Origin: Scenedesmus sp. PABB004
Taxonomy: Eukaryota
Direction of reading: 5' to 3'
Length of the DNA stretch: 64,000 nucleotides
Assembly (NCBI GenBank): GCA_014905635.1
Contig: JABVCE010000020.1
Location: 186,001-250,000, forward strand
Part shown: positions 2,031 through 62,746 of the stretch, in pieces
Position numbering within the stretch: the first letter of the stretch is position 1
Layout of the letters: each line of letters begins with the position of its first letter
Translations under genes and position numbers: made by a program
The notes under the pieces: generated by a model
What the model was told of the DNA's origin: nothing
What the model saw: only the letters and a program-made list of their open reading frames with translations
Database searches by the model: none

Positions 2031-2145
2031 CACAGGCCATCGCTCTCTGCTGCTGTTTTATCTGTTCCTTGCTCATATGTGTGCGGGCCAGCGGCGCGCG
2101 CCGCGTGCGGTGCCCGCGCGGTCGGGCGCGCGGCAGCAGCACAGC

Positions 2146-2164
2146 GCGGCGGCGCGGTGACGCC
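2146..2164 (+). promoter_or_regulatory. Conserved 19-mer GCGGCGGCGCGGTGACGCC upstream of LRR gene 1
   Basis: The same 19-mer lies 340-365 nt upstream of all six LRR genes. Function is inferred. Confidence 0.45.
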
Positions 2165-2510
2165 GAGCGTGCGTGACGCTGGACCACGCAGCGCCGCGCC
2201 CGACGGCGCTCTGTTGCTGTCGGCCATCCATAGCCGCGCCGTCCAGGCCCGCTCGCCCGCGGCCCCCATCGGCAGCGCCCGGCCAGGTCCCACCCGCCAG
2301 GCTGCCTCCCCCGGCCCGCTGAGCCTCCCGGCCGTCGCGCCGCCCGGCAGTTCGCCGTCTCTCACCATGCAGGACCCAACTCGCGCCTCTCCCGCACCGC
2401 CCCGCTCACACACGGCCCGCGGCACCGTGTCGGGCATCGACCCTGCTCCCGCAGCGCGCGCCCACGCGGCGAGAGCGACCAGCGGCATGCTCCTGTCTCG
2501 TTGAGCCGAC

Positions 2511-4900
2511 ATGGCTTCACACAGCGATAGCGCTCCGGTTCGGGCAGCGCTCGCACTGGCGGCGGCGCTGGCGCTGCTCGCGGCCGCCCCGGCCGGCGGC
2601 GCAGCGGCGCGCCGCCCCGGGCGCGGCCTGCTGGCGGACGGGAGTGGCTACCGCAGCCTGCTGACAGCCACCACTGTGCCCGCGGCCGAGTGCCCGCCCG
2701 GCAGCGGCGTGTCAAATCGCGAAGGCGACTGCGCGCCGTGCAAGCGCAGCACCTGGTCGGCGGGCGGGCAGGGCGCCAAGTGCCAGCTCTGCCGAAAGGG
2801 CTACACCACGGCCAGCGACAGTGCAACATCGCCGGCGGCCTGCAGTGACTGCCGGGCCGGCTACGGGCGCGACCTCCACGCGCGGCCCAAACGCTGTGTT
2901 CTCTGCCCGGCCGGCACGTGGCGCGCGGCCAAGCCGGGGCAAGGCATCAGTTTCTGCCATGCCTGCCCCCTGCTGACAACAACGCCGGGCCCTGGTGCCA
3001 AGAGCGTCGCCGCGTGCAACGTGACCGTCGCCCTGCCCGACGACCCGCTGGCGTCGGCGCTGCTGCGCGGCCTGGCGGAGCTGGGCCCGGGACAGCTCGG
3101 CAACAATTGGCTGTCAACGTGGCGCCCCGGCACCGACCCCTGCACCTGGCAAGGCGTGGTATGCTCAGTGAGCACGCCGCGCGTGGTTAATTTGGTCAAC
3201 ATTGTCCTCACAGGACCGTGCACCGGCCGCCTGCCACGCGCGTGGGCCGAGCTCGGCGCCGGGCTGGAGGGGCTGTTCATCACTATCAACAGCCAAGGGG
3301 GTGAACAAAGCGGCCTCAGCGACGCGTCGTGGCCTGCGGAGTGGCGCAACCTCACCGGCCTCAAGCGCCTCCGGCTTGATGGCGTGGGCGTGACCGGCGC
3401 GCTGTCGCTCGCGGCGCTGCCGCCGACCATACAGAGCGTGGGGCTTTACAACAACCGCCTCACCTCCCTGGCCGACGACCTCGTGCCGGGCGCGCTGCCC
3501 GTGCTGGATGGGCTGATCATCCAGCAAGACCCTGCGCGCCCCATCGGCGGGACGCTCCCGGCGTCGTGGGGCACTCTCGCAAAGTTGGGGTCGCTGGACT
3601 TCCGCAACAAGGCGCTGATTGGCCCGCTGCCTGCCGCCTGGGGCGCCGGCATGGTGACACTTGGAGAGCTGTACTAGGGCGGCAACGCGCTGACCGGCCC
3701 CCTGCCTGCCGCCTGGGGCGACGGCATGGCGGCGCTCACACGGCTTGATCTGTCGCACAATGCCATCACGGGGCCCCTACCCGATGCGTGGGGCGGCCTG
3801 TCCAACCTTACATCGATGCAACTGTCGTACAACAACATCAGCGGCCCCATCCCTGAGGCCTGGGCCGGCGGCCTGGCGGCTCTGGGCACCCTGGACCTGT
3901 CGCACAACGCGCTCAACGGCTCACTGCCCGCCAGGGCGCTGAGCAACGTGCCGGTCCTGGACCTCAGTTACAACCAGGTGCGGCGCCTGGCAGGCCGGCG
4001 GCACAGCGCGCTGACACAGGCAGGCCCTGCGCGGGCTCACGGCAGGCGCGTACACGCACCGACCTGCGCTCTTCCCTGCCGCGGTGCCGCCGCCCCGCAG
4101 CTGACGGGGCGCGTAAACAACTGGGCGGGGTGGACAACGATCTCTAACTGCTCTGGACTCATGATTTACCCCATCCTGAACCTCGCGCACAATCAGCTCA
4201 CCGGCCCGCTGCCCGAGGCGCCGGGGGGCAAGGCTGGCCTCATCGACCTGTCGGACAACGCCCTCACCTCCACGCTGCCGGCCGCCTGGGCGCAGTGGGC
4301 CCGTGCCCCTGGTGAGCAACCCCCGCACTGGCTCAGCGCTGCGCGGCAGCTGCTGCATGCTGAGCGCGTGGCGCGCCACGCTCGCCCACCCAGTGCGGCC
4401 GCCGCTCCCTGCCTCCGCTGCGACCGCCGCCGCCGACAGGCTGCAGGCCGGACCTTGCACTTGAGCTCTCCAACAACCAGCTCCGCGGCCCGCTGCAGCC
4501 CGGGTGGGGCTCCTGGTCGGTGCCCTCGCAGGCGACGCTGAGCTGGCTCAACCTCACCGGCAACCCCCTCAACGCCACGCTGCCGCCCGAGTGGGGCAGC
4601 AGCGCAAGCCTGGGGTCGCTGGACGTGCGGCACTGCGGCCTGCAGGGCACGTTTCCAGCTGCAGCGTGGGCGGCGATGCGGCTCTACGAACTGGGCATCT
4701 GCGACAACCCAGACCTCTCCGGCTGCCTGCCGCACGCGTGGCTCCAGCGCGGCATGTCCCTGCTGGTGCACCCGCGCGCGTGCGAGCTGCCGGGCGACTG
4801 CGCCACGTGGGTGCCGATCAGCGAGCTAGCGAGAGGCGCAGCGCTGCACCCGGACCCGCTGCAAAACACTCGTATCACTGGCGTGTGCCCTGCGGCGTGA
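2511..4900 (+). pseudogene. LRR1: secreted Cys-rich-repeat (ephrin-receptor-like/GCC2-GCC3) + plant-type LRR protein, with an in-frame TAG
   Basis: Signal peptide, CxxC repeats, LRRNT (WRPGTDPCTWQGVVC) and LxxLxLxxNxLTGPLP repeats. Exons 2511-3977, 4101-4311, 4440-4900. TAG at 3675-3677 (ELY*GGNAL) replaces a framework Leu. Confidence 0.8.
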
Positions 4901-5448
4901 GCGCTGCTGCCACGGGGAGCGCTTGGGGGCGTTGAGAGCCAGCACTGTGGGGAGGGGCGCACCTGCGCGCACGCAGCATTGACGCAAGCGGCACTGCACT
5001 GCGTTGCTTGAAAAACACTAGCGGCGGGGCTCAGGCCACGCCAGCGGCGCGGCAGCACCGCAAACTGAGGGGTCAAGGCGGCGGCGTGGGAGTGGGACTG
5101 CTGATCTCACATGCGTGGCGGCACTGCGCTGGGCTGCGTGCGCATGAGCGGCGGTGGGCGTTTGCGGTCACGGACGGCTGGGTGCTAGTCGGCAGCGCGC
5201 GTGGTGCTTGGCAGGGCAGGCGTGAGCGCCCCGTGTGGCGCGTGCGTGGACTGCACTCGTGAGGGGCGCGTGGGCGCGGGGCAGGAGGCGGTTGCCTCGT
5301 GAGAGTTTCAATCAAGCGCTGGCCGCACAGCTCCTTTGCACATGGCGATCCTGGAAACCAAACCCTGTTCTCCCCTGGCGGCGGCGCGTCTCGCAGCGCC
5401 GGCCCCCGCCCGCCCGGCTGCAGCACCGCGCGCCTCGCCCGGCGCCCC

Positions 5449-7914: not shown

Positions 7915-7945
<31 letters not shown>

Positions 7946-10270
7946 GGGGGGGGGGAGGGGGGGGGGACAAGGGCAGCCGCCAAGAGCAGCCGCCGGCGCC
8001 CGCCGCGAGCGCTGTGCCGTGTCGCCGCGTCCGCCCCACCCACCACGGGCGCCGCGCCGCGCCGCGCCGCCGCCGCCGCCCAGGGCGCTGCCGACCGAGG
8101 CCAACGTCGACTGGGTGCTCGCGACGAGCCACTACGGCGAGGACTTTGTGGCGGCCGTGGCCAAGGGGGCCGCGGCGGGGACGCAGTTCCACCCCGAGAA
8201 GAGCGGCCTGCTGGGGCTCGAGATACTGCGCGGCTTCCTCGACCCCGACAGCCCCGAGGCGGCCGCCGCGGCGGCGGCGGCCAACGCGCGCACGCTCGCG
8301 GGTGCGGCGCGGCGGGGGCGGAAGAGCGGGCAAGCGCGGGCGCGCGCGCGTCGGCGGCGGCGCGCGCGGGCGCGCCGAGCGCGCCCTGCGCCCTGCCTGC
8401 CCGCCCCCTGCTGCCCGGCAGCAGGGCTCGCGCGCGACGTCGACGCCGCGGGCGGCAGCGGGCTCGCGCGGCGCGTGATCGCGTGCCTCGACGTGCGCGC
8501 CAACGACGCGGGCGACCTGGTGCGCGCGCGCGCGCCTGCGCGCCGCCCGCGCCGCTGCCGCGCCTCACGCCGCGCCGCACACTGCGCTCCCACACGCGCG
8601 CGCCCCGCGCCCTGCCCCCCCCCCCCCCCCCCAACCCACCCACCCACCACCCACCCACCCACCCACCCACCCACCCACCCACCCACACCTGCGCGCCCTG
8701 CGCCCTGCGCCCCCCCCCCCAACTTCAGGTGGTGACCAAGGGCGACCAGTACGACGTGCGCGAGGACGAGGAGTCCGGCGGCGACGTGCGCAACCTGGGC
8801 AAGCCGGTCGAGCTCGCGGCGCGGTGCGCACGCCCCGCCGCGCCGCCGCGCCCGTGCACACGCCGCCCTGCGCCCCCCGCCGCCGCGCCGCCTCGCTCAC
8901 GTCCCTCCACCGCGCCTCTCATCCTTCCTCCCTCCCTCCCTCCTCCCCCTCCCTCCCTCCCACCCCCTCCCCCTCCCTCCGTCCCTGTTCAAACATTCAA
9001 AACCAACCAGCTACTTTGCCGAGGGCGCCGACGAGGTCGCGTTCCTTAACATCACAGGCTTCAGGGACTGCCCCCTCGAGGACCTGCCCATGCTCGGGGT
9101 GCGCGACGCCGCCGCCGCCGCCGCGCCGCGTGCCACGCCTGCGTCGCGCCGCGCGCGCGCCGCGCTGCGCGCCGCCGGCAGCTCGCGGACCCCGCCCGCG
9201 CGCGCGCCTCGCCCGCCCCGCGCAGGTGCTGCAGGCGGCGAGCGAGCGCGTGTTTGTGCCGCTGACGGTCGGCGGCGGCATTCGGGGTTCACCGCCGGCG
9301 GGCAGCAGTATGGGGCGCTGCAGGTCGCGGCCGAGTACTTCAGGCGCGGGGGAGCGCAAGGGCCACCCAAGGGCCCCCAGCGCCGCCCGCCCCGCCCCGC
9401 CGCGGCGCCGCCGCCGCCGCCGCGCGCGCCGCGCAGCACGCGCGCCGACGCCGCGCAGCACGCGCGCCGACGCCGCGCAGCACGCGCGCCGACGCCGCCT
9501 GCGCCGCCGCCGGCGCGCAGGTCTGGCGCGGACAAGGTCTCGATCGGCAGCGACGCGGTGCTCGCAGCGGAGGCCTACTACGCCGGCGGGCGCGCGCTGG
9601 ACGGCAGCACCGCGATTGAGCAGATCAGCGCCGTCTACGGCAAGCAGGCGGTCGTGGTGCGCACGCGCGCGGCGCGCGGCGCGGGGCGGGGGGGGGGGGG
9701 GCGCGTGCGCGCGGCGCGGGCCAGGGCGGCTCGCGCCCGGCCCCCGCAGACGGCTGACCGCAGACCGCTGGCTCGCAGGTGTCGATCGACCCGCGCCGCG
9801 TGTACGTGGCCGACCCCGGCGCCACGCCGCACGCGTGCGTGAAGGCCGCGGAGCCGGGGCCGGGCGGCGAGGCGTGGTGCTGGTGGCAGTGCACCGTCAA
9901 GGGCGGCCGCGAGGGGCGCGACATCGATGTGATTCAGGTGCGCCGGTGGTGCGGCGGTGCGGTCGTGGTGCGGTGGTGCGGTCGTGGTGCGGTGGTGCGG
10001 CGGTGGTGCGCCCGGCCGGGACGGACGCTGCACCGCCGCCTGGCCCAGCCGGCAAAGCCGCGCGGGCTGGCCGGCGGCGGCTGCAGACTGTGTGAGCGCG
10101 GCGGCCTCGGCGGCCTCGGCGCACGCGCCGCCCACGCCGCCGCCGCGTGCCGCCGCCGCGTGCGTCCGCCGCGCCGCGCCGCGCGGCCCGCAGGTCGCGC
10201 AGGCGGTGGAGGCGATGGGCGCGGGGGAGATCATGCTAAACTGCATCGACAACGACGGCCGCGGCCAGGT

Positions 10271-10338
<68 letters not shown>

Positions 10339-10931
10339 CTGCCGAGCAAGGGGGCGCTGTGCGCGCGCGCGCGCGGGCGCGTGGGCTGCGCCGCGCCGCA
10401 AGCCCCGCGCACGGGGCGCGCGCCCGAGTTTAAGCGACGCCCGCGCCGCGCACCGCGTGCGGCAGGGCTTTGACCTGGGCCTGGTGGATGCCGTGTCGCG
10501 GGCGGTGACCATCCCCGTGATCGCCTCGAGCGGCGCGGGCGCGCCGGCGCACTTCACCGAGGTGCGCGCGCCGCGCCGGGGGAGCGGCGGGGGCGGCTCC
10601 GCTGCCCGCACGCACGCACGCGCGGCGCCAAGCCGCGCCGCGCCGCCGCCGCCGCCGGTCCGCAGGTGTTCAAGCAGACGCGCGCCGCGGCGGCGCTGGC
10701 CGCGGGCATCTTCCACCGCGAGGAGGCGCGCGCAGCGCCTGAACCCTGCCGCGCGCCCGCGGCCCCGCCCGTGCCCCGCGCGCCCAGCTTGGGCGGCCCC
10801 GCCCTGCCCCCTGGAGCCGCCCCTGCCCTGCCCTCACTGCCGCCGCTGCCGCGTCCCGCGCGCAGGTGGGCATCGACGAGGTCAAGGCGCACATGGCTGA
10901 GAACCAGCTGCCCACGCGGCTCGCGGTCTGA
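6722..10931 (+). CDS. HIS7: Bifunctional imidazole glycerol phosphate synthase HisHF (HIS7/HISN4) with probable plastid transit peptide; about 14 introns
   Basis: TLLDYGAGNVRSV, LIFPGVGSFG, PFFGICLGMQ, VPHIGWN, YFVHSF, QFHPEKSG, RVIACLDVR, VVTKGDQYDVRE, FVPLTVGGGIR, SGADKVSIGSDAV, GAGEIMLNCID, IPVIASSGAG, AALAAGIFHR. TGA at 10929-10931. Confidence 0.96.
10271..10338 (+). repeat. (GCG)n microsatellite in a HisHF intron
   Basis: Uninterrupted GCG run directly after the GT donor at 10269. Confidence 0.95.
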
Positions 10932-10995
10932 GAGGGAGGGAGGCCCGCGGGGGCGCGGCGTGGGCTGGGCGCGCGTGGCGCGGCGCGGGCGAGCA

Positions 10996-11014
10996 GCGGC
11001 GGCGCGGTGACGCC
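10996..11014 (+). promoter_or_regulatory. Conserved 19-mer opening the shared ~350-nt upstream block of LRR gene 2
   Basis: GCGGCGGCGCGGTGACGCC. The block 10990-11342 aligns with the upstream regions of LRR3, 4, 5 and 6. Confidence 0.45.
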
Positions 11015-11342
11015 GCGCCCGTGCCGCACGCAGGCGGTGCTGATGACACCGTTTGCAGCTCTCAGGTCGGCCCAGGCGCCCAGCCGCGCTGCCAGCCCCG
11101 GACGCGCCCGCCAGGCCCTGCTTCCGGGGCTTGCGCACTCCTCCCCGCGACCAGGCCGCACCGCCGCTCCGCCGCCGCGCCGTTCGCCCCGCCTCTATCG
11201 CACCGGCACCTCAGCGCTGGCCCAGCGGCGCGCTGCCGCGGCCCACCGTGCACTGCGAGACCAACCCGGGCAATCCGCTGTCGCAGCGCGCCCCGGGCGG
11301 CCGGCAGGCCCCGCCCGCACTCGCTCCGCCGCCAGGCCAGTC

Positions 11343-13505
11343 ATGCCAGCCCGCAGCGGCCACGCGCTGGCGCGGCACGCGCTCGCACTGGCGGCGGCGC
11401 TGGCGCTGCTGCTCGCGGCCGCCCCGGCCGGCGGCGCGGCGGCGCGCGGGCCGCGGCGCGGCCTGCTGGCGGACGGGGGTGGCTCCCGCAGCCTGCTGGC
11501 CACCACCACTGCGCCCGCGGTCAACTGTACACCCGGCAGCGGCGTGTCGGCGGGCGGCGGCGAGTGCGCGCCTTGCGAGCGCGGCAGGTGGTCGCGAGGC
11601 GGGGCGAACGCCGTGTGCCGGCTCTGCGGAAAGGGCTACAACACTGCCGGCCCAAATGCAACATCAGCAAGGGCCTGCAGCGACTGCCGGGCCGGCTACG
11701 GGCGCCCGCCTGCCGGAGGACGCCGCACCTGCGCGCTCTGCTCGACCGGCACGTGGCGCGCCGCCAAGCCGGGGGCCGGCATCAAGGTCTGCCAGGTTTG
11801 CCCCGTGCTGACGACGACGTCAGGCCCCGGCGCCAAGAGCGCGGCCGCGTGCAACGTGACCGCCGCCCTCGACGACCCGATCGCGTCGGCGCTGCTGCGC
11901 GGCGCGCTGGAGCTGGGCCCGCAGTTCAGTGACCGTTCGCTGGCGTCCTGGCGCCCCGGCACCGACCCCTGCACCTGGCAAGGCATAATGTGCACAGACA
12001 GCACGCCGCGCGTGGTCAGAGCGATCGGCCTTCAACTCGGACCGTGCACCGGCCGCCTTCCGCGCGCGTGGGCTGAGCTCGGCCCCGGGCTGGAGGAGCT
12101 GAGCATCACCATCAATGGCGGGGCCAGCCTCGCCGACCCGTCGTGGCCCGTGGAGTGGCGCAACCTCACCGGCGTCAAGCGCCTCTCCCTGAATGGCGTG
12201 GGCGTGACCGGCGCGCTGTCGCTGGGGGCGCTGCCGCCGAGTGTGGAGCGCGTGGACCTTCTGAACAACCGCTTCACCTCCCTGGCCGATGATCTGGCGC
12301 CGGGCGCGCTGCCCGCGCTGGCTCAACTGGCCATCGGTCAAGACCCCGACCACCGCATCAGGGGCACGCTGCCGGCCTCGTGGTCGACGCTCGCCGCGCT
12401 GCAGTCGCTGGACCTCCGCAGCCAGGCGCTGACCGGCCCGCTGCCTCCAGCATGGCCCGGCATGGCGGCGCTTCGAGAGCTGCGCCTGAGCGGCAACGCG
12501 CTCAGTGGGCCACTGCCCGCCAAGCTGCCCCCCAACGTTTTGCACCTGGACCTCAGCCACAACCAGGTGCGGCGCCTTACCCAGGCGACGGCGCGGCGCG
12601 GCGCGCGCTGCGCCGCGGACGGCCCGACGCGAGCTGCTCAAGCGGGCGCGCGTGCACAGCCCGACCTGCGGCCCGCCGCGCGCTGCCGCAGCTGACGGGC
12701 CGCCTGGATGCCTGGGAGTGGTGGAACGATACTTGTGACCCCGTCTCCACTGCTGGATCGTGTGAGGAAAAGCGCGCCTTGTTCCTCGCCCACAACCAGC
12801 TGACCGGCGCGCTGCCCGAGGGCCCTGCGGGCAGGGCCTACTTGGTTGATCTGTCGGACAACGCCCTCACCTCCACGCTGCCGGCGGCCTGGGCGCACTG
12901 GGCCAGCAATGATCCAGGTGGGCTGTCGGCGAGCGCTGCGCGCCGCGGCCGGTGACGGTGGTTGGGGCGCGCGTGGTACGCTGCTGGCCGGCAGGCCCAG
13001 CCGCTGGCCGCCCCAACTCAGACATCTGCCGCCAACAGGCTCTGGTAGTCAGGCCGTCATGCTCAACCTCGCCGGCAACCAGCTCCGCGGCCCGCTGCCG
13101 CCCGAGTGGGGCAACTGGACGTGGCCCGCAGAGCGAGATTGGCTGCACGGCCTCAACCTCACCGGCAACCCGCTCAACGCGACGCTGCCGCCCGAGTGGG
13201 GCAGCTTGAACCTGTGGGCGCTGGACGCGAGCTTCTGCAGCCTGCGCGGCGAGCTTCCAGCGGCGTGGGCACCAATAAGGCTCTCCGCACTGGCCATCAG
13301 CGACAACCCAGACCTCTCCGGCTGCCTGCCCCGCGCGTGGCTTCAGCTTGAGGGCTTTATGCAGCTGCTGGTGCACCCGCGCGCGTGCGAGCTGCCGGGC
13401 GACTGCGCCACGTGGGTGCCGATCAGCGAGCTGACGAGCGGCGCGGCGCCGGACCCGGACCCGCTGCGAAACACTCACATCACTGGCGTGTGCCCGCCGC
13501 CGTAG
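11343..13505 (+). CDS. LRR2: secreted Cys-rich-repeat + LRR protein, apparently intact, short LRR array
   Basis: MPARSGHALARHALALAAALALLL signal peptide. Exons 11343-12566, 12692-12917, 13039-13505, with the same two intron positions as its paralogs. No TM helix seen. Confidence 0.85.
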
Positions 13506-13599
13506 CGCCGCTGCACAGTGCGAGGGGCGTGCATTTGTGTGTCTGCACCACACGAAGCGCATGCCGTGCTGAGCCGGCACACACGCATCGGGCACAAGC

Positions 13600-17408: not shown

Positions 17409-17689
17409 GCGCCGCCGCGGCTGCTCAGTGCGAGGGGCACGTGCGCGCTCGCACACCCGGCACGCTTATATGTCGACGGGCGGTGCGCGCGCGGCAGGCG
17501 CTGGGACCTCCCGGTTGCGCTGCGTGGGCGGCAGGCGGCCAGTGGCGCGTGCCGGGCGGTCAGAAGCTGCTAGCGTGAGTCGCCCGCTGGTCGCGCGCGT
17601 CAAAGCTTGGGACTTGCGCGCACAGCGCACGGGGCCGCCTCACTGCGCTTGGGGCTTGGGGCAGGGTTTGTGGCCGAGTGTGGCAGCAT

Positions 17690-49375: not shown

Positions 49376-52300
49376 ATGTCGGGCAAGTGCCCAGCCCTGC
49401 TGGCAGCAGCTGCTGCCGGCGCCGCCGCGGCCAGCGCGGCGGGGTACGTCGCCTACACCGCCGCCGCGAGGCGCGTTGAGTATGTGGTGATCTGGAGCGA
49501 GGGCGCCAAGACCGGCGTCCGCCTGGCCCGCGTGGAGAGCCTGGACGACCTGCGCGCGGCCGTGGAGGAGCGCCTTCACGTCGAGGAGGCGCGCCTGTTC
49601 CTCGACCAGGTGCGCGGCGCCCGTGCATGCGCCCACACACGCGCAGCTGATGAGACCGGCCTGCGCGAGCTGCTGGGGCCCTCGCCGAGGCCGCGGCCGG
49701 CAGCGCCACGGGCCTGGGCAGCGCCCGGCGACGCCGGCGTCCCAGATCCGGCCCCGCAGCGGCGCGCGGGCGGGCGGCGGCGCGCGCGGCAACCGCCGCC
49801 GCGCGGGGGCGCCGCCCGGCGCGCGGCACGCACTGCCGACGGCGCGCACCCCGCCCCTCGGCGCCCCCCGTCTCCGCAGCTCGATGGCAAGCCCGAGCTC
49901 ACCAGCACCGAGGCGCTGCGCGGCGCGTACGCCGACCCGGCGGCCTGCCTGCAGGGCGCCCTGCTGCTCGTCGCGACCGCCGGCGGCGCGGCGCTCGGCG
50001 CCGAGGCCGCCGCCGCGCCGCGCCTCGCGCCCGTGCCGGACGGCCCGCGGCCGCTGCCGGGTGCGCCGGTCAGGCGGCGCGCGCCTCGAGGGGGCCCGGC
50101 GGCCGCGCGCGCAGCCGCCGCGGCCCTCCCAAGCCCTCAACTACACGCGCGCACGGCGACACGCCCGCACACGCGCCCGCCCACGCGCCCGCACACACGC
50201 GCCCGCACACACGCGCCGCACACATACGCCACGCAGTGCTGGGCAACTTCACCGCGTACCTGCGCGGCGGGCAGGGCCATCCCGCGTACAACCTGGCGGC
50301 CAACGTCTTCGCCCCCGAGCGCCGGGCGGCCTGGGGCGACACCGTCGTGCTGCACCTGCCCAACTGCGCCGCCGGCGGCGACACGTTCAAGGCGCGCAGC
50401 GCCACGAGGCAGCGCGCGGCGCGCGGCGCCGCCGTCGCCGCCGCCGCGCGGCGCCGCGGGGCAGCGCAGCGCGCGCCGCGCACGCACGCGCGCCGCCTCC
50501 TCCACGCGCGCCCGCGCGCAAACGCGCCGCCGCCGCCGCCGCCGCCGCCCGCCCGCCCCCGCGCGCCCGCCGCCGCCCGCAGGAGGCGCCGCCGGGCATG
50601 GTCGACTGGGCGGTCACGACGTGCGACCCGGAGGTGGTTGCGGAGCTGCTCGAGCGCCAGCCCGACTTCCCCAAGCTCTGGGGCCGCGAGGCGATCGAGC
50701 GCGCGCTGCAGGACGTCGCGGGTGCGCGTGGGTGTGGAGCCCGGGCGCGCGGCGGCGCGGCGCGCGGCGGCGCCGCGTCGGGGGGCCGGCGGCGCGCCGC
50801 GGCTGGCCGCACACGCCCGCGCCGCGCCGCCCGCGCCCGCGCTGCCCCGCCCCCAGGCAACGGCCTCTTCACCAGCTCCACGCTCGACCACGACTGGTGC
50901 GTCCAGGGTTTAGCGGCTGGGGTGGCTTGGCCGGGCGAGTCCCCGGTCGCGGCCCCCGGCCGGTCCCGCCGGGCGGCCTGAGCGCCCCGCCGACGCAACC
51001 GCGCGCCGCCGCCGCGCAGGGAGTCGGCGCACGGGCTGCTGCCGCGCGGGTTCAACCAGATCCGCATCAAAAACTACTACCCGGTGGGGCGCGGGGGGCT
51101 CGAAAGGGGAGGGCATAACAGGGTTTAGGGCGCGGGGGCCGGGACAGGGCTTAAACTATAAACCCTGGGAGGCCGCGCCTCGACGCCGGCCGCTGCCGCC
51201 GCCGCCGCCAGGTCATGCTGGACAAGACGCGCTCCTTTGCGGCGGCGTGGGCGGCGGTGCCCCAGGTGCGCGGCCGCGCCGCGGCGGCGCGGGCGCGGCG
51301 CCCAGGTTGTGGCCGCGCCCCGCGGCGCCCGGGTTGTGGCCGCGGCGCGGGCGGCGCGCGCGCGCACGAGCGCGCCGCTGCGCCGCCGCCCGCCGCGCCC
51401 GCAGGGCGGCGAGCTGTGTGAGATCAACGACTGGCTCACCTGCATGACGGCCGACGCGGTGGTCAAGGCCAGCATGGGCCTGGTGCGGCGCGCGGCGGGG
51501 GCGCGGCGCGCGGCGGCGCCTGGGGGGAGGGCCAAGTCACGCCTACGGCAGCGCGCGCGGCCCGACACACCCCGCCACACCCGACAAACCCCGGCGCGCC
51601 TCGCCCGCCGCCGCCGCGGCGGCCAGGACATGGGCAACGTGGAGGCCAAGGCCTCGGGCAGGCCGCTGCACAAGTTCATCGAGGCCTTCCGCTACGCGCT
51701 CAAGGCGGCGATCGGGACGTGCGTGGCGCCGCGCCAGCGCCGGCGGTTTTGGCGGCGGGCGCGCGCCTGGCGCGCGCCTGGCGCGTGCGGCGGCGCGCCG
51801 CCGCCGCCCGCGCGGCGAGCTGACCGCCGCCGCCGCCGCTCTGCTGCCGCCGCCGCCGCCGGCGGCGTCCGCGCAGCGCGACGGTGAAGAGCGAGTTTGG
51901 GCAGCTCGCGGCGGTCAACCCCTTTTTCGACGGCAAGGCCGCGCTCGCGGCGAAAAAGGCGGCCGCGGTCAAGGCGGCGCAGGAGGTGGTCAACGAGCTG
52001 CTCGAGCGCACGCGCAAGGTGCGTGCGTGTGTGTGACCGGCCGCGTCGCGTCGCGCGCCGACTGCGCGTGCCGCGCCGCGCCGCGCCGCACCCAGTGCCG
52101 GCGCGCGCGGCGCCGCGGCGCCCGGCCGCCCCGCCACGCGCCCGCGCGCTCACGCGCGGGCGCCGCCGCCGCGCCGGTCAGGGCGAGATCGGCGGCAGCG
52201 GCAGCGTGCTGTCGGCGATGCTGAACGACGTGAGCCCCGGCACCGGCGACTACGTGCGCCTGTGCAACATCTATGGCCAGGTCATGAACCTCATGATTGC

Positions 52301-55300
52301 GGGTGAGCCGCCCGGGGTTTAGCGGGGGCCTGAGCCGGGGTTTAGCGGGTTAGGCGCTAGGGGGCAAGCCGACATCCGCGCGAGGGGGCTAGAGGGGGAG
52401 GGGGGGGGGCGACGCCTCGCGCGGACGCGGCCCTCGCGGGCAAGGCGGCGCGTGGGGGGCCGCGGGCTCCGCCACTGCCGGCTCCCCGCCAGCCGCCCCG
52501 CCGGCCCGCCGCGCTGACCCGGCCCGGCCGCCGGCGCCGCCGAACCGCCCAGGGCACGAGACGACCGCCGCGACGCTCGCGTGGACGCTGTACTACGTGG
52601 CGACGCACCCCGAGGTCGAGGCCAGGGCGCTGGCAGAGATTGAGGCCGTGCTTGGCGACCGCATGGAGCCGCGCGTGGACGACGTGCCCAAGCTGGTGCG
52701 GCGGTCGACGGGGCCGGGTGCAAGGGCTTAGTTGGGGCGCCGGGCCCGGGGCGGACGGGGCCGATGGAGAGCGCGCGCCGCCCTGCGCGCGCCGTCGAGC
52801 GCCCTGCCCGCCGCGCCGTGGGGCGCCGCCGCCGCCGCAGTTCTACCTGGAGGCGTGCTTCCGCGAGGCGCTGCGCCTGCACCCCGCGGTCGGCACGGTC
52901 ACGCGGGACGTGATGCACGACACCACGCTTAAGGGTGCGCCCAGGGCGCTGTGGTTCAGGGTTTTTTGGGTCTTGTTCAGGCTGCCCCGTGCGGCCGCCG
53001 CGCCCCGTCCGACCGCGCTGTGCCGGCGCCGGCGCCGCCGCCGCCGCCGTGGCAGGCAAGTGGTTTGTGCGCAAGGGCCAGCGCGTCGACATCAACAACG
53101 TCGCCCTGCAGCGCCGCGAGGACCAGGCGCGCGCCGCGCGCCGCGCGCCCCCACAGCCGCCGCCCGCGCGCGCGGCCGCCGACCTCCGCCGCCGCCGCCC
53201 TGACCCCGCGCGCGTCTCGCCGCGGTGCGTGTGTTGTGTTTGTTGCTTGCCGCGCAGTGGGGCGGCAAGTTTGGCGACCCCAACAAGTACAACCCCGATC
53301 GCTTCATGCCCGGTGAGACCGGCCGCCTGTTGGCGCAGGAGGGCCCCCAGCGAGCTGGGGGCGGGGGGGGGGGGAGAGGCACCCCAAGCGCGCTTGCTTT
53401 TCCAGCCCGCGCGCTCGAGCCAGTGCGCGCGCCCGCGCGCCAGGCGCCCACCGCGCCGCCGCCGACGCCGCCGCAGGCGCGGCCGAGGAGACGGGGCGCC
53501 ACCCCAACGCGTTCAACCCGTGGGGCTTTGGCGTGCGCGCGTGCATCGGCAGCCAGTTTGCGCTGTGGGAGGCCAAGACGTTCCTGGCCATGATCCTCCG
53601 CTTCTTCAAGTGAGTCTCAAGACTGAAGACCCACATTTTATTAGGCGCTCCTTTGGTTTTGGTTGGGATCAGGAAGAGAAGGGGGACTGGGGGGTGGACT
53701 TCGCTGCGCTCGGCCGGCCGAGCTGCGCACCGCCGCGCGCCGCGCCGCGCGCCCCGCCGCAGGCTGCGCGTGCCCGAGGGCTTTGGCGTGCCGCTGCCGA
53801 GCGTCGCCGACGGCGGCGCCGCGCCGACGCCGCACCACCTGCGCCTGCGCATCTGGAAGCGCAAGGGCGCGCTCGAGGTGACCCCACGCCGCCGCTGGTG
53901 GCGGGCGGGCGGTCGCGTGGGGTTGAGGCAGCAGCCGGGGCGGCTGAGCACTCTCTCGCGCCCGCGGCAGCCTCGCTCACACGTCCGCGCCTCTGCCCCG
54001 GCCGCGCCCGCAGAGCCTGCAGGCGGCCGCGTCGGCCGCGTCGCCCGCCGTCGCGCCCGCCGCCGGCGGCGCCGCGCCCGCCGCCGCCGGCGCCGCGCCG
54101 GCCGCCGCCGGCGCCGCCGCCGACGCGGGCGGGCACGGCACGCCGCTGCTGGTGCTCTACGGCTCCAACGGCGGCACGTGCGAGGAGCTCGCGTCTGCTC
54201 TCGCGTCCAAGGCCGCAAGCGCGGGCTTTGCCGCCACGGCGGCGAGCCTCGACAACGCGCTCAAGGCCAAGCTGCCCGGCGCCAAGGCGGTGCTCGTGGT
54301 CACGAGCACCTACAACGGCACGCCGCCCGACAACGCCGCCGCGTTTGCAAAGTGGCTGCCCGCGCAGGCCGCGGGTGCGCGCCCCCGCGCCACGCCGCTG
54401 CGCGCTCGCCGTGCCACACGCCCTCCGCGCTCGTGCTCGCGCTCTCGCGCGCGCCCTGCGCAAACACGCGCACACACACACGCGCCGCAGGCTCGCTCTC
54501 GTCCGTCAACTTTGCCGTCTTTGGCGTCGGCAACAGCCAGTGGGCCCAGACGTACCAGGCCTTCCCGCAGCAGGTCGCGCTGCAGCTCGCGCGCGCGGGC
54601 GCCAACCAGGTGCGTGCGCGCCGCGCGTTGTTTTGTGCGCGCGCGCCGCCGCCGCGCCGTGCCGCGCCGCGCCCGCTAGCCTCCCTCTGCTCCCGCGAGT
54701 CAACAGCTCAACAGCAAAGCCCCGCCCGCCAAAAACCCGCCCGCCCACGCGCGCAACGCGCGCAGCTGCTGGAGATGGCGGTCGGCGACGTGGACGGCAA
54801 CGAGTGGATGGACGCGTTTGACGACTGGACGCGCGAGGTGCGGCGCGCGCCGCGCCGGCAGCCCACGGGCGTCAAACCCCCGCGCGCGCCGGGCCGCCGC
54901 AGCGCCGCTGCCGCTGCCGCAGCCCTGATTACACGGCCGAAGCTCACCGCCCACGGCCCTCCTCCACCCCCGCAGGTGATCAAGGCGCTGCTGTGCAGCT
55001 ACGGCGTGGAGCCGCCCGCGACGTACAAGGCCGCCGCGGGCGAGGGCGGCGGCGACGGCAAGGACCGCCTGCACCTGCGCCTGCTCGGCGCCGACGAGCC
55101 GGGCACGCCGGCGACCGTGGCCGACGCAATCGCCCGCCTCTCGGCGGCGCACCCCGACGACGCGTACGCGATGCTCACGGTGCTCGAGAACCGCGAGCTG
55201 CAGGGCCCCAAGAGCGACCGCTCGACGCGCCACGTGCAGCTGCAGCTCCCGCCCGGTCCCGCCGGCGCGTACACCGCCGGTGCGCGCCGCCGCGCCTGTC

Positions 55301-57840
55301 GCCGCCGCCGCGCAGGCGGGCGGGCCGGGCGCCGGCCGGCAGCACAGCGCCGCCGCCGCCGCGCCGAGCGCCCGCCCCTCCCGCTCACCGCCTGCGTCCC
55401 GCGCCCCCCTAAACCCTGCGCCTCGCTCTCTGAACCCAGGCGACCACCTGGAGGTGATGGGCAACAACGACACGGCGCTCGTCGCCGCAGCGCTCAAGCT
55501 GCTCGGACTCAAGGGTGAGTGAGCGCCCTCCCCTGGGGGCCGGCCCTGCCTGCGCGCGCCAGGCGCCCTGCTCGCCGCTTGCGCGCGCCGCCGACGCCGC
55601 AGCCGCCGCCGCGCGCCTCGCCGGCCGGCCGCAGGCGACGAGCGCGTGGAGTGGACGACCAACTTTGAGGACGGCGACGGCGCGGCGCGCGGCCTGGGCG
55701 GCGGGCAGAAGCTCGTTATCATCCTCACCGCCACCACGGCCCTCACCTGTGCGCGCGCTGCCCGCGGCTGCTGCGCGCCCGCGCGCCCGCCGCGCCCGCC
55801 GCGCCCGCCTGCGCACCCCCTCCCCTCCCTGCTGGCCCCCTGCCCGCTGCCGAGGGGGCAGCGCCCGCACGCACAACATCATCCGACCCGCCGCGCACCT
55901 GCGCCCGCGTCGCCGCGGCACGACGCAGGGCTGGTGGACCTCGCCGCCGTGCCGACGCGGCGCACGATTGTGGCGCTCGCCGAGGCGTGCCCCTGCCCGC
56001 CCGAGGCGGCGGCGCTCAAGGAGCTCGCCGACGAGGCGACCTACAAGGACAAGGCGCGTGCGCTCTTGCCTGACGCAGTCGCTGGGCGCGCATGCGTGCC
56101 CTGTGTTGCGTGCCCTGTGTCGCGCGCGCCGCCCTTTTAAGCGCGCGCGCGGCGCGCCTCGTGCCTCACTCGTGCCTCACCCCCGCCCGCCGCTGCTGCG
56201 TCCGCAGGTGGGCGGGCAGCGCCTGACGCTGGTGGAGCTGCTCAGCCGCTTCCGCTCCGTGCCGGTCAACCTCGGCGCGATCGCCAACATGCTTCCCCGC
56301 ATGGGCCCGCGGTGCGCGGCTTGGGGCGTCGGCCGCGCCGCCGCCCAGCCGAGCCTGCCACGCCGCCGCCGCCGCCGCTTCGCAAACCGCTTCCACCCCC
56401 CCCCCCCCCTTTCCTGCCCTCCCTCCCTCCCTCCCTGAACCCTCAACCCTCAACCCTGAAACTAAACCCTACCCCCGCCCTCACCGCCCGCCCGCAGCTA
56501 CTACTCCATCTCCAGCTCGCCCCTCGCGCGCCCGGGGACCGCCTCGATCAGCGTCGGGCGCGTCGCGTTCACCACGCCGACCGGCCGGCCCCACAAGGGC
56601 GCGGCGAGCGCGACGATCGCGGCCACGCCCGTCGGCGGCGCGCTCGTCGGCAGCGTGCGCCGGCTGTCGAGCAGCTTCCGCCTGCCCAAGGACCCCGCCA
56701 CGCCGGTCATCATGGTCGGCCCCGGTGCGACTGCGCCGCCCTGCCGCCCGCGCGCCCGGCCGCGCTGCCGGGCGCCGCGCTCCCGGCCGCGCCGCGCGCT
56801 CGGCTGCAGCTGAGCGCAGCGCGCCCGTCCCTCCACCCGCGCGCCAGGCACGGGCGTGGCGCCGATGATGGGCTTCCTGCAGGAGCGCGCCGCGCTCGCG
56901 GCCGGCGGCGCGGCGCTCGGCCCGGCGCACCTCTTCTTCGGCTGCCGCAGGTGCGGAGCGCCGCGCCGCCGCGCCCGCGCCGCGCCGCGGCACCTGCGCC
57001 ACGCTGCCGCACGTGCGCCGCGCCGCCGCGGGCGCACACGGCCTCTGCTCACACGCGCCCGCTCAAACGCCCCCGTTATAACATGTAACGCCCCCGTCAC
57101 AACGGGGCAGCGCTGCCGACGACTTCATCTACCGCGCCGAGCTGGAGGGCTACGCCCACAGCGGCGTGCTCGCGGGCCTGCACGTCGCGTTCAGCCGCGA
57201 CGGCGCGTCCAAGGTGCGCCCCGCGGCGCGACGCGCGTGCCCCCTGCGTCCGCCCGTGGGAGCCCGGGCGGGCTTCCCGCGCGCGGTGGCGGCTGCCGCT
57301 CCCCGGCCGAACCCGCCCTGCGCTCGCCTCTGCGCCTCGTGTGCCACGCAGGTGTACGTCCAAGACCTCATCCTCCAGCAGGGCGAGGCGCTGTGGGCCC
57401 TGTTTGAGCGCGGCGCGCACGTCTACGTCTGCGGCGACGCGCGGCGGTGCGTTGCTCGCGTGCGCGCGCGCGCGGCCGGCCGGCTGGCGGCGGCGGCGGC
57501 GCGCCGTCTCGGGCGCGCGCGGCCCTGCTGTGCCGCCTCTCTGCCGCCGTGTTGCCGACCAAGCCGCACTCGCCTGCCGCCCCTGCTTGCAGGATGGCGC
57601 CCGACGTGCGCAGCGCGTTCAAGGAGATTGCAAAGGTGCGGCGGCGCGCTACGCGGGCGGGGCGGGCTGGAGCCAGGCAGCAACGGCGCCGGGCCGCGGC
57701 GTCGACGGGGCCTTGCTCACGCGCCGCCGCCGCCTACCGCCGCGCAGACGTGGGGCGGCCGCAACGGCGCCGCCGCGGAGAGCTGGATGGGCGGCCTGGT
57801 GGAGGCCAAGCGCTACCTGGAGGACGTCTGGGCGGGCTGA
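49376..57840 (+). CDS. Self-sufficient cytochrome P450 / NADPH-P450 reductase fusion (CYP102/CYP505, BM3-like); about 30 introns
   Basis: GPRPLP/VLGN, GNGLFTS, MIA/GHETTA, EALRLHP, YNPDRF, PWGFGVRACIGSQFALWEA (heme Cys), VLYGSNGGTCE, TSTYNGTPPDNA, FAVFGVGN (FMN), RYYSISSSP, MVGP/GTGVAPMMGFLQER, LFFGCR, YVCGDARRMAPDV, RYLEDVWAG*. Confidence 0.95.
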
Positions 57841-58592
57841 GCTGAGGACGTCTGGCGGGCCGAGCTGTCACAGCTGTGACGGAGCTCGGCGGCAGTGTGG
57901 GCGCGGGGCGGGCAGCGCGGCGTCCCGCACAGCACGAGGCCGGGCCGCTGCGGCCGAGTTCTGGAGGAGGGATTGCAGCAGGCGGCTGGCCGGCGCGAGA
58001 ATGGCCGTGCGGCTTCTGGGAGGAGGGGCAGACAAGAACTGGCGCGGGATGCTCTTAGATTGCGCTGCTGCTCTGCGAGTGAAACGCACTGCTCCTTTGC
58101 CCACCGCGGGGACGCGTTGCCCCGGTCCGCGTGCGCTCCTGGACTCAGGCTGGATTCAGGCCGTCACCAGGCAACGCCGCCCCCCACACGGACCCGCTGC
58201 GCCGCCACGCCTGGCGCGCTCCGAGCGGGCGGGGGCCGAGCAGCGGCGGCGCGGTGACGCCGGCGCCCGTGCTGCACGCAGGCCGTGCGTTCGCCGCCGT
58301 TCCGCGGTTCTGGGTCGTTCCAGGCGCCCAGCCGCGCTGCCAGCCCCGGACGCGGCCCGCCAGGCCCTGCTTCCGGGCTTGCGAGCTCCTCCCCGCTCGA
58401 CCAGGCCGCACCGCCGCTCCGCCGCCGCGCCGTTCACCCCGCCTCCATCGCATCGTTACCTGAACACAGGCCCAGCGGCGCGCTGCCACGGCCCACCGTG
58501 CTCTGCGAGACCAACCCGGGCAATCCGCTGTCGCAGCGCGCCCTGGGCGGTCGGCAGGCCCCGCCCGCACGCGCTCCGCCTCCCGGCCCGTC

Positions 58593-60859
58593 ATGCCCAG
58601 CCGCGGCGGCCACGCGCTGGCGCGGCACGCCCTCGCACTGGCGGCGGCGGCGCTGGCGCTGCTGCTCGCGTCCGCCCCGGCCGGCGGCGTGGCGCGCGGG
58701 CCCAGGCGCGGCCTGCTGGCGGACGGGAGTAACTCCCGCAGCCTGCTGGTCGCCAACGCTGCGCCCGCCGTTGATTGCCCGGCCGGCAGCGGCGTGCCGG
58801 CGGGCGGCGGCGGCGACTGCGCGCCGTGCAAGCGCGGCACCTGGTCGGCCGGCGGGCCAGACGCGCGGTGCCGGGGCTGTCCCGAGGGCTACAACACGCC
58901 CGGCGAGGGCGAAACGTCGGCGGCGGCCTGCACCGACTGCCGGGCCGGCTACGGCAAACCGGCCGACAGCCGTGTGCGCACGTGCGAGCCCTGCCCGCCA
59001 GGCGCGTGGCGCAACTCGAAGCCAGGCGGCGGCATCAAGCCCTGCCATGCCTGTCCTGTGCTGACGACGACACCAGGCCCCGGCGCCAAGAGCCCGGCCG
59101 CGTGCAACGTGACCCTTGCCCTCCCCGACGACCCGGTGGCGTCGGCGCTGCTGCGCGGCCTGCTGGAGCTGGAGCTGGGCGCAGAGCTCATTGGTCGTCG
59201 CGGCCTGGGGTCGTGGAACCCCGGCACCAAACCCTGCACCTGGTCGGGCGTGGTCTGCTCACGAGGCGCGCCGCGCGTGGTCACATGGGTCAGTGCTTAC
59301 TTCAGGCGGCCGCCGACGGGCCGCCTGCCGCGCGCGTGGGGGGAGCTCGGCCCCGGGCTGGAGTCGCTGTACCTCAGCACGGACCCCGGAGTGAGCGGCG
59401 GGGCAAACCTCAGCGACGCGTCGTGGCCGACAGAGTGGCGCAGCCTCACCGGCCTCAAAAACCTCGCACTCAGAGGCATGGGCGTGACCGGCCCGCTGTC
59501 GCTGGCAGCGCTGCTGCCGCCAAACTTGGAGCGCGTGGACATTGGCGGCAGCCGCTTCACCTCCCTGGCCGACGACGTCACGCCGGGCGCGCTGCCTGCG
59601 CTGACTCAGCTGAACTTCCAGCAGGACGACGACCACCCTATCGGCGGGACGCTGCCGGCGTCGTGGGGCGCGCTCCCCGCGCTGCAGACGCTGGCCCTGA
59701 CGAATCTGGGTCTCACCGGCCCGCTGCCGGAGGCCGGCTTTCACAACCTCACGAACCTGATCCTGCCGCACAACGCGCTGTCAGGGCCGCTGCCGGGGGC
59801 CGGCTTTCCCAGCCTCAAGAACCTGGCCCTGCCGTTCAACGCGCTCTCAGGGCCGCTGCCGGCCAAGCTGCCGGCCAACTTGGTGTTCCTGGACCTCAGC
59901 CACAACCAGGTGCGGCGCACGGCACAGGGCCACGGCCGCTGCGCAGCGCACGCTGCGCCAGGGCGCAGACATGCCCCGCGCCGGCTGCGCTGGCAGCGGC
60001 AGGGGGCGCGCGGACACACGCACCGACTTGCGGTGCCGCCCAACCCCCGCGCAGCTGACGGGGCGCCTGGATGGCTGGGAGCTGTGGGCGCGTGGGCGCA
60101 GCCCGAGCGGTGACTGTGTCGACGACCTCAACCTTTCCCACAACCAGCTCACGGGCCCGCTGCCCGAGGCGCCGGGGGCCTGGCATGGCATGTTTCTGTC
60201 GGACAACGCCCTCACCTCCACGCTGCCGGCCGCCTGGGCGAAGTGGACGTTTCCTGAAGGTGGGCCAGGGCCGTTGCGTGCGATGCGCTGCAGCCGAGCG
60301 GCGAGAGGCTGGGCACGCCCAGCGTGCTGCTGGCCTGGCAGGCCCGGCCGCAGCCCGCGGCCGCACATGCTCATGCCCACCTCAACCCCGGCCGCCACCA
60401 GGCTGCGGCGGCGGAAGCGTGTACCCTGACCTCTCCAACAACCAGCTCCGCGGCCCCCTGCCGCCCGAGTGGGGCGCCTGGTCAGAGCCCATGCAGGCGA
60501 CGCTGGGCTGGCTCAACCTCACCGGCAACCCGCTCAACACCATGCTGCCACCCGAGTGGGGCAACATCACAAACCTGGGGTCGCTGGACGTGCGGTCCTG
60601 CGGCCTGCAGGGGACGTTTCCAGCTGCAGCGTGGGCGCCGCTGCGGCTCTATGCACTGGGCATCAGCGACAACCCAGGCCTCTCCGGCTGCCTGCCACGC
60701 GCGTGGCTTGAGCACGGGACGGAGCTGGTGAGGCCCACGTGCGAGGTGCCTGGAGGCTGCTGGGGCCCAGGGGTGCCCCTGACCGACCTGGTGAGCGGCG
60801 CGCCGCTCGACCAGGACCCGCTGCGCAACACCGACATCACCGGCCTGTGCGCGCCGTAG
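58593..60859 (+). CDS. LRR5: secreted Cys-rich-repeat + LRR protein, apparently intact
   Basis: Exons 58593-59909, 60055-60259, 60402-60859. Signal peptide, CxxC repeats, LRRNT, LRRs and a DNPGLSGCLP cap. Confidence 0.87.
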
Positions 60860-61069
60860 TGCTGAGCAAGCATTGCTGGGTCATGTGCGTGCCTGCCGGG
60901 CGGTGCGGGGTGTGAGGGTGGGGGTGCAGCGGCACCTGGGCGGCGCTGCGTTGCTTGCGTGGTTCTTGGTAGGCGCGCTGGCGGCGCGCGGCAAGCACGC
61001 GTGGTGTGCTTGGGCGCGTCACTGCGCGTCACTGCTCTTGATGCTCGGTGAATGATTGTTTCCGCGTCT

Positions 61070-62300
61070 GCATGACTGCGCTTGGGGTGGCGCTCAAGGC
61101 CAGGTCTGGTGCCGCGCCGGACACGCTGGTTGCAGAACTGGCAGAGGGAAGCACAGCTGGGGCATGCGAGCTCTGCATGGCGGCGGCGGTGCGGTGGTCC
61201 GGGAAACGCGGCGGCGGGGCAGCACGTGGGTGGCGCGGCGCCCTCGGCTGCTGTGCGCTCACACGATTGCGCGGGGAAGGGGGGGGGGGCTGGCTGCACG
61301 CGTGCGTTTGCCAGCGCGCGGGGCATTTCCACAGCTTGTGTGTGAGCGCTGCGCATGCGCATGAGGGACTGAGCTTGGGTTGGACTTGTGTGCGCGCGTT
61401 GGCGCTTGACTCTCGAACAGAGGCGGCTGCCGCCCAAACGCATCGTGGGGCGGTGGCATCCAAGCTGTCGTGGGCGCTGCTGCTACAGTTTGGCTGCTGC
61501 AGTTTGGCCAGTTTGTTTGGCCGCTTCTGGCTGTGGTGCCGCAACACGACGGCACTGCGCTCGGCCGGGAGGGCGTGCGCTGCCGACGCGGGCAGCCCGA
61601 TCTCAAATTCAAGCGCGTGGTTGATGCAGGACTGAGCTTTGGGTCTGCGCTGGCCCGCGCGGCAGCTTGACAGTACAACACAGTGGCGGCTGCATGTCCC
61701 CCGCCTCATCGCACGCATTCAAAAGGCTCGTCCCTCGCGCACACCCTGCGTCGGTGTGCAAATGTTTGATCGTGTGGTCGCGGCACACGTGCGCTGGGCA
61801 CAGATGAATTGGTCTTGGGCGGGGGCGGGCTGGGCACGGCGGCTGCTGTGCGCTCAAGCGACCGCTGGTGGGTCCACCGCCCTGCGCGGGGCGGCACTGG
61901 CTGCGCGCGTGCGCTGCCGGCGCACGCATTTTCCAATTCAAGCGCGTGGGTGATGCGGGACTGAGCTCTGGCTCTGCACTGGTCTGGTGCGGCGCGCTGC
62001 CGCGGCAGCAGCGTCAACGCCAACAGAGCCGGCTGCAGGCAGTGCCTGGCGCCAGCGCATGCGCGCCGGCCTCGCGTGGGGCCCCCGGCATTCAGCAAGC
62101 TCTCGTGCACGCTGCCACATGGCTGCAGTGGTTGGGACTTCAATGTTGTTGAGGTACACGTGCACAAACTGCAAGGCGGTGTGAGGGCGGCTGCGGGACG
62201 CGCAGCTGCCGCGGCCGCTGCCCCCGACAGGGCCCCGCAGCACCGAGGTCGCCCCGGCCCACCCCGCCGTGCACTGTGCGCCGGTCCGCGTGCGCTCCTC
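61070..62300 (+). repeat. Degenerate intergenic repeat family (between LRR5 and LRR6, with internal duplication)
   Basis: TTCAAGCGCGTGG.TGATGC.GGACTGAGCT occurs at ~61608 and ~61937. The stretch 61890-62340 is colinear with 14010-14470. Confidence 0.8.
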
Positions 62301-62746
62301 AGCTTCAGGCCATCACCAGGCAACGCCGGCCCCACACGGACCTGCCGCGCCGCCACGCCCGGGCGTGCGCCGAGCGTTCGAGCGCCGAGCTGCGGCGGCG
62401 CGGTGACGCCCGCGCCCCCGTGCCGCACGCACGCCGTGCGGATGATGCCGTTTTGCAGCTCTCCGGTCGGCCCAGGCGCCCAGCCCCGCTTCCAGCCCCG
62501 GACGCGCCCGCCAGGCCCTGCTTCCGGGGCGCTGCACGGGCTTGCGAGCTCCTCCCCGCGACCAGGCCGCACCGCCGCTCCGCCGCCGCGCCGTTCGCCC
62601 CGCCTCCATCGCACCGGCACCTCCGCACTGGCCCAGCGGCGCGCTGCCGCGGCCCACCGCGCGCACGAGACCAACCCGCGGCTGTCGCAGCGCGCCCCGG
62701 GCGGTCGGCAGGCCCCGCCCGCACGCGCTCCGCCTGCCAGCCAGTC

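Follow-up and report, generated by a model that had tools for sequence, protein, structure and literature searches.

A 64,000-nucleotide stretch of contig JABVCE010000020.1 from the alga Scenedesmus sp. PABB004 (assembly GCA_014905635.1, positions 186,001 to 250,000 of the forward strand), hereafter the window, contains two multi-copy gene families set among housekeeping genes, and a non-coding repeat that follows members of both. As published (PMC12571836), the genome comprises 39.8 Mb in 77 contigs, with 78.5% GC and 7,092 genes; GC in the window was ~70-83%. Gene families were delimited by self-BLAST, domains and neighbouring genes by Pfam searches of open reading frames (ORFs), and the repeat, termed R, by nhmmer profiles, all within the 64-kb window (coordinates in Table 1). 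One family consists of six leucine-rich repeat genes (LRR1 to LRR6), which combine the domains Ephrin_rec_like, LRRNT_2 and LRR, and the other of three sulfatase genes (S1 to S3). R is a G/T-rich, non-coding repeat of ~0.5 kb located 3' of LRR2, LRR3, LRR4, LRR5 and sulfatase S2. An earlier note on this DNA had described both families as cargo on a shared non-coding backbone, spread either by a gene-carrying mobile element or by repeat-mediated local hopping.

The relationship between the repeats behind the two families was evident by several measures. In self-BLAST, the sequence behind LRR2 (13596-14063) paired with that behind S2 (36266-36749; 72% identity over 506 nt) and with 17763-18251, behind LRR3. 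A profile built from the LRR2 and LRR3 copies of R alone matched the S2 copy at E 7.8e-60 and 197 bits (nhmmer), compared with a top score of 3.6 bits in five composition-matched simulated windows. The 5' part of R opens with the start motif TGCCAGCRTGACTGCNC, which has five matches in the window at up to two mismatches (0.51 expected), located 73-273 nt past five stop codons and on the sense strand every time. The 3' part is a unit of ~200 nt with the core 24-mer CTGGCTGCGCGCGTGYGCNGCCRG (seven matches at up to two mismatches, 0.01 expected), and this unit has a period of ~330-360 nt, with three occurrences each behind S2 and LRR5. With a model of this unit, ten matches at E < 1e-4 were obtained in the window, the next best being at E 0.23. 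All ten lie 3' of LRR2, LRR3, LRR4, LRR5, S1 or S2, on the strand of the upstream gene, and no significant match was obtained near the approximately nine other genes of the window. The five repeat ranges given in the earlier note agree with the nhmmer positions of R. Its statement that both families are followed by the same repeat holds for LRR2 to LRR5 and for S2, but not for LRR1, downstream of which no R was detected (best E 0.8, nhmmer), and S1 and S3 are followed by traces only.

Such a distribution could have arisen if R were an old, degenerate dispersed repeat, either a transposon relic or a minisatellite-like sequence, that landed independently 3' of the ancestors of both families and was then copied along with them, making the association incidental. 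The internal structure of R, with its 5' part and reiterated 3' unit, is in agreement with this explanation, as are the lack of an LRR coding relic near the sulfatases and the finding that the R copies of the two families have diverged to about the same extent. Within the core of R, the LRR2 copy is 87% identical to the last LRR5 unit and 79% identical to the LRR3 copy; for the three S2 units, identity is 61-68% among themselves and 61-74% to the LRR copies. The S2 units are therefore old and do not reflect recent local amplification. However, independent insertion does not readily account for the placement of all ten significant 3'-unit matches behind the two families, on the strand of the upstream gene, with none beside the other genes. 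In addition, the homology of S2 continues past R into sequence that matches the middle of the spacer found in the LRR array (37488-37562, plus strand), a match that is weak alone (E 0.032) but collinear. As part of the LRR spacer lies behind the R of S2, a copied LRR inter-unit region fits better than an independent insertion. The ends of R showed neither terminal inverted repeats (TIRs) nor a poly(A) tail, and repeats are published to make up only 1.31% of the genome (PMC12571836). On balance, we consider an incidental dispersed repeat unlikely.

The fixed position and strand of R, with a start motif at a limited distance past five stop codons, would also be expected of a selected 3' module, such as a terminator, a polyadenylation region or a 3' untranslated region (UTR) element, that suits head-to-tail genes in front of a convergent neighbour and was spread between the families by recombination. 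The near-invariance of the core 24-mer and the G/T-rich sense strand (GC skew +0.11 at 36-38 kb) are consistent with this proposal. In contrast, a consensus fold of eight R cores showed compensatory change in 1 of 18 pairs, and thus no covariation support, and Rfam gave no match across the window. The poly(A) signal motif TGTAA, expected ~5 times per strand, was not enriched in the window (plus strand, 4; minus strand, 14) and was absent from the R regions. Moreover, LRR1 lacks R, and S1 and S3 have intact frames yet only traces of R. A selected 3' module thus appears improbable to us.

The three sulfatase genes retain nine introns that align across all copies, and their reading frames are intact in all three, every indel being a multiple of three. 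The product of S2 is KAF8059387.1, 'sulfatase [Scenedesmus sp. PABB004]', with identity in 10 of 10 exons. Homology among S1, S2 and S3 ends exactly at the TGA stop codon, and its 5' start lies 378 nt upstream of the ATG for S1 and S2 and ~110 nt upstream for S3. Identity between these borders is a mosaic. In sliding windows, identity between S1 and S2 is 99-100% at 32051-33580 and at 34090-35283; at ~33580-34090 (exon 6/intron 6, S2 coordinates), all pairs are 70-87% identical; at 35209-35433, S1 and S3 are the closest pair (98-99%); and at 35800-36100 (exon 10), S2 and S3 are closest (95-96%), with S1 only 75-82% identical to S2. The R traces of the sulfatases are far more diverged than the gene bodies. 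Judged from the alignments, the mosaic bears the signature of repeated gene conversion among old duplicates, and the true age of the copies would be the one indicated by the unconverted tracts. The sharp, cassette-like borders of the sulfatases would then have arisen because conversion kept the gene bodies alike and the flanks were left to decay, and each sulfatase would carry a different, decayed trace of R because flanks as old as the unconverted tracts are barely alignable. For exon 6/intron 6 and exon 10, selection may have opposed conversion, or the copies may be diversifying.

In the LRR family, pairwise identity among LRR2 to LRR6 was 76-80%, LRR1 was 68-75% identical to the others, and the tree was star-like, with support for none of its three inner branches. 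Distant copies share patches of high identity, for example 94% between 4373-4743 and 46325-46695, which suggests gene conversion in this family as well. The earlier note had stated that introns were kept and that copying therefore took place at the DNA level, and this is borne out in both families: in addition to the nine sulfatase introns in three of three copies, an LRR intron junction between AACCAG and GTGCGGCGC, read through by tblastn, occupies an equivalent position in LRR1, LRR2, LRR4 and LRR5. Neither LRR3 nor the portion of LRR6 that the window covers gave a match in a motif search for this junction. Aligned to KAF8059413.1, LRR1 and LRR3 are collinear except for a single in-frame stop in each. 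The stop in LRR3 sits at a conserved Trp position, and LRR3 is a probable pseudogene; LRR1 and LRR3 are both probably young pseudogenes, unless the stops are sequencing errors. KAF8059413.1 is an LRR relative located outside the window on the same 737,270-bp contig, 26 accession numbers from the S2 product, and is the sole other annotated close relative of this LRR domain set in the protein collection.

Upstream of each LRR start region, at a distance of ~360-400 nt, the 19-mer GCGGCGGCGCGGTGACGCC occurs once and without mismatch in all six copies. It contains a TGACG core, which we take to resemble bZIP sites, and the surrounding sequence is only ~70-80% conserved. No exact match to the 19-mer was present upstream of any of the three sulfatases. 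Being exact in six copies whose identity is otherwise 68-80%, the 19-mer has the look of a conserved cis-element in the promoter or 5' UTR of the LRR genes, and not that of a transposon end.

The boundaries of the units bear most directly on the proposal that LRR and sulfatase units are the cargo of a non-autonomous Pack-type or Helitron-like element with R as its 3' part. Several features of the locus would suit such a carrier. The units start soon after the stop of the upstream gene, as had been pointed out before: S1/S2 homology begins at 27199, 33 nt past the PDI-C stop; the 5' homology of LRR2 begins within ~100 nt of the HisHF stop; and the 19-mer at 2146 lies ~120 nt past the PIG-C stop. 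They also occupy three convergent gaps (PIG-C/ankyrin, HisHF/NEK and PDI-C/AAA), and the strands of the Pfam matches agree with the orientations originally described in all three. Furthermore, whole genes have been copied together with their promoters, and the 5' homology of LRR1, LRR2 and LRR4 starts at the same 19-mer.

The ends themselves, however, do not resemble those of a mobile element. LRR and sulfatase units have shared sequence on their 3' side only: an LRR 5'-flank profile matched the six LRR copies and none of the sequences upstream of the sulfatases, and a sulfatase 5' profile matched sulfatases only. There is no 5' terminus common to both families, and the 19-mer is LRR-specific. 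Within the LRR family, homology is shared from the 19-mer onward in LRR1, LRR2 and LRR4, but extends ~100 nt further in LRR3, LRR5 and LRR6. At the 3' side, it stops with R in LRR3 and LRR4 and continues through a spacer of ~330 nt into the next LRR gene in LRR2 and LRR5. As far as the alignments define them, the unit ends are ragged, unlike the defined 5' and 3' termini of Helitrons. Inverted-repeat scans of the window and of three R regions gave gene-to-gene arms or short GC-rich pairs, and no recurrent TIR; GC-rich palindromes near the end of R were uninformative as hairpins at 76% GC. A Pfam scan of the window ORFs detected no transposase or Rep/helicase domain above noise. One DDE_5 match at 51154-51423 (minus strand), with E 0.006 among 91 ORFs, was treated as noise. 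The reported absence of a transposase and of TIRs was thus reproduced, whereas for target-site duplications it can be said that none was seen, the ragged, old ends of the units making short duplications unplaceable. Identity of 70-80% also marks the copies as old, and outside the conversion tracts no pair is young. With conversion providing an origin for the borders, the gene-carrying element of the earlier note finds no support here, and we regard it as the least probable of the explanations considered.

A close relative was represented by contigs from two metagenome runs (X1 and X2) of one study; contig depth was not used as a copy number. These contigs are ~96-97% identical to the window and agree with its local arrangement at the places that they bridge. 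One X1 contig (record 6; 36125-37262) contains the final 30 nt of S2 and leads through the unique 3' flank into R, and an X2 contig spans the junction between the coding end of S3, inverted, and the 3' flank of that gene, the shorter arm measuring 180 letters. Since the contigs of the relative bridge these junctions, the arrangement is no assembly artefact and is shared at that small distance, and the presence of the same junctions in the relative also argues against a mobile carrier. An arrangement shared with a relative of ~96-97% identity says nothing on older events. A further X1 contig, which joins a sulfatase stop to the S1-S2 spacer, was not counted, as its 30 letters on the gene side fell below the 31-letter rule, and a third contig set (X3) contained mostly contigs of other organisms that matched the AAA domain. 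All three sets are of DNA and come from two studies. Scanning metagenomes for the R core 24-mer returned eight loci, in all of which the R profile matched only ~30 nt round the motif; five of them (L001, L002, L003, L006 and L007) are one ~120-nt locus in related assemblies. The eight loci were rejected as R copies, being chance matches unrelated to R outside the motif.

Taken together, we favour, at a rough probability of 0.6, the reading that local duplication at the DNA level, birth-and-death and gene conversion explain the LRR and sulfatase units and their sharing of R. What was observed directly is the homology map, the mosaic of conversion tracts, the retention of introns, the premature stop codons and the sharing of flanks on one side only, whereas the order of events and the route by which a sulfatase gained R are our inference. 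As is characteristic of tandem and segmental duplication, the copies cluster locally with their introns and flanks, have mosaic identity and include decaying members. Both families, one with an Ephrin-receptor-like/LRR ectodomain and the other encoding arylsulfatases, would be lineage-specific and would have multiplied locally by tandem and segmental DNA-level duplication, with one inverted duplication giving rise to the block of LRR4 and S3, which are indeed adjacent and both on the minus strand, as noted earlier. The gaps in which convergent housekeeping genes face each other terminator to terminator would allow new copies to survive, probably since an insertion at such a site leaves promoters undisturbed. 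R and the spacer that follows it would be the inter-unit spacer of the LRR array. An ancestral sulfatase would have gained its R-containing 3' flank once, probably by duplication into or next to an LRR unit, comparable to the present order LRR4-R-S3, and later sulfatase duplications would have brought R along. As duplication of a block with this interleaved order would put R behind a sulfatase, the number of independent gene-R associations would be about two, one per family ancestor, and not eight. As the flanks decayed, conversion would have made the gene bodies more alike, leaving sharp 'cargo' borders at the stop codon, and some copies, LRR1 and LRR3, would be dying. Repeat-mediated local hopping that builds a layer of secreted proteins, the other option of the earlier note, fits these data, but in essence it comes down to ordinary tandem or segmental duplication.

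Several points weigh against duplication and conversion as the full explanation. The sulfatase flanks yielded no LRR coding relic (best E 0.23), and there is no direct explanation for the sharing of the LRR spacer by the ancestral sulfatase. R is ~70% identical between copies and its 24-mer is near-invariant, while LRR coding sequence is only 76-80% identical; R could therefore be constrained, or could constitute an independent repeat family. All three complete clusters lie in convergent gaps and are co-oriented with the upstream gene, a placement that a targeting mechanism would also predict. Finally, the distribution of R is that within the window, and copies beside unrelated genes elsewhere are possible. 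We consider it highly improbable that R and its spacer act as a recombination module, or represent the degenerate end of a non-autonomous element, moving secreted-protein genes into terminator-to-terminator gaps; if true, this would give a compact algal genome of extreme GC content an accessory layer organised like cassettes.

Comparable processes are found in the birth-and-death of plant LRR and NLR genes, in concerted evolution, in recombination between low-copy repeats, and in gene capture by Pack-MULE/Pack-type TIR elements and Helitrons. Like the tandem LRR receptor-like and NLR genes of plants, the LRR copies studied here form local clusters of LRR ectodomain genes, were copied with promoters and flanks, include pseudogene copies (LRR1 and LRR3) and show exchange-like patches (94%). 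They differ in having the domain set Ephrin_rec_like, LRRNT_2 and LRR, with one other annotated close relative, and in forming small arrays scattered among housekeeping genes within 64 kb. The sulfatases resemble families under concerted evolution by conversion in that 100% tracts alternate with tracts of 70-87%, the closest pair switches, and homology ends where the flanks are too diverged. Here, however, exons 6 and 10 are strongly diverged with the frames intact, so that conversion is incomplete and may be opposed by selection. As in non-allelic recombination between low-copy repeats, direct and inverted copies of R flank genes (S1-r-S2-R, and the R of LRR4 inverted relative to that of S2), but at ~60-87% identity the R copies are a poor substrate now, and no breakpoint was demonstrated inside R. 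The likeness to Pack-MULE/Pack-type TIR elements and Helitron capture lies in the DNA-level duplication of host genes with introns beside shared non-coding sequence. In contrast to those systems, the units lack a TIR, a pair of shared termini, Helitron-type ends and a transposase, no target-site duplication was seen, and the copies are complete genes with their own promoters and not fragments.

Table 1 Features of the 64-kb window in order of position.
Feature	Position	Strand	Remarks
PIG-C/GPI2	1 to ~2027	+	Pfam
LRR1	2146-4910, body 2543-4910	+	19-mer 2146-2164; in-frame stop 3675-3677; without R
Ankyrin gene	~5.7-6.5 kb	-	Pfam
HisHF-like gene (His_biosynth)	stop 10898-10900	+	Pfam
LRR2	10968-13528	+	19-mer 10996; stop 13503-13505; Ephrin_rec_like, LRRNT_2 and LRR
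R after LRR2, full copy	13579-14133	+	start motif 13610; core 24-mer 14019; nhmmer
Spacer between R and LRR3 5' flank	14100-14429	+	homologous to 61975-62308
LRR3	14385-17460, self-BLAST 14422-17460	+	19-mer 14513; in-frame stop 15486-15488
R after LRR3, full copy	17661-18274	+	abuts 3' side of minus-strand kinase gene
Kinase (Pkinase; NEK of the earlier note)	18.4-21.6 kb	-	Pfam
RbcX-like domain	21373-22227	-	weak match, E 1.6e-4, below Pfam cut-off; between kinase and PDI-C-like gene
PDI-C-like gene (ERGIC_N, thioredoxin, COPII_ERV)	stop 27163-27165	+	Pfam
S1	27199-31319	+	5' flank, 10 exons, 9 introns; frame intact; S2 homology ends at TGA
Degenerate R 3' unit after S1	31449-31548	+	E 5.8e-05; core 24-mer with 2 mismatches, 31454-31477
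S2	32051-36154	+	coding sequence 32429-36154; TGA 36152-36154; 10 exons
R region after S2	36251-37437	+	full copy 36251-36764; further 3' units 36998-37178 and 37214-37437
AAA ATPase	~37.8-40.7 kb	-	Pfam
R start motif after S3, exact	41306-41322	-	152 nt past S3 stop; remainder of R absent
S3	41474-45288, self-BLAST 45191-41474	-	inverted; frame intact
R after LRR4, partial	46149-45709	-	between LRR4 and S3
LRR4	46133-48998, self-BLAST 48944-46133	-	19-mer 48919-48901
ORF region without explanation	49.3-51.1 kb		
P450-flavodoxin-FAD-binding gene	52.3-57.8 kb	+	Pfam
LRR5	58118-60857	+	19-mer 58243
R after LRR5, degenerate, four pieces	61051-62001	+	3' units 61244-61395, 61573-61662 and 61800-61986
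LRR6	62267-64000, self-BLAST from 62277	+	19-mer 62392; runs past window end

Other parts of the window gave a few additional observations. Directly upstream of LRR5, Pfam matches to P450, flavodoxin and FAD-binding domains are co-directional across ~5.5 kb (52361-57840, plus strand), and this stretch looks like a single fused P450-reductase gene of the self-sufficient P450 type. A long GCG/CGG trinucleotide run is present at 10253-10374, within the HisHF-like gene region, and similar runs occur elsewhere in the window. For the 605-aa ORF at 49301-51115, the best ESM Atlas score was 0.77, which was uninformative.

With respect to annotation, protein searches covering the near-length range returned the S2 product alone among the nine family genes of the window. 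The public gene set may accordingly lack at least eight of the family copies, two of which are probable pseudogenes, and this is of use to annotation. The LRR 19-mer and the near-invariant core of R are candidate cis-elements. The sulfatases provide a worked example of how conversion may yield sharp, cassette-like borders that can be mistaken for those of mobile-element cargo. If local duplication and conversion are the correct explanation, a small (39.8 Mb), repeat-poor algal genome with 78.5% GC would still assemble a local accessory repertoire of sulfatases and secreted LRR proteins.

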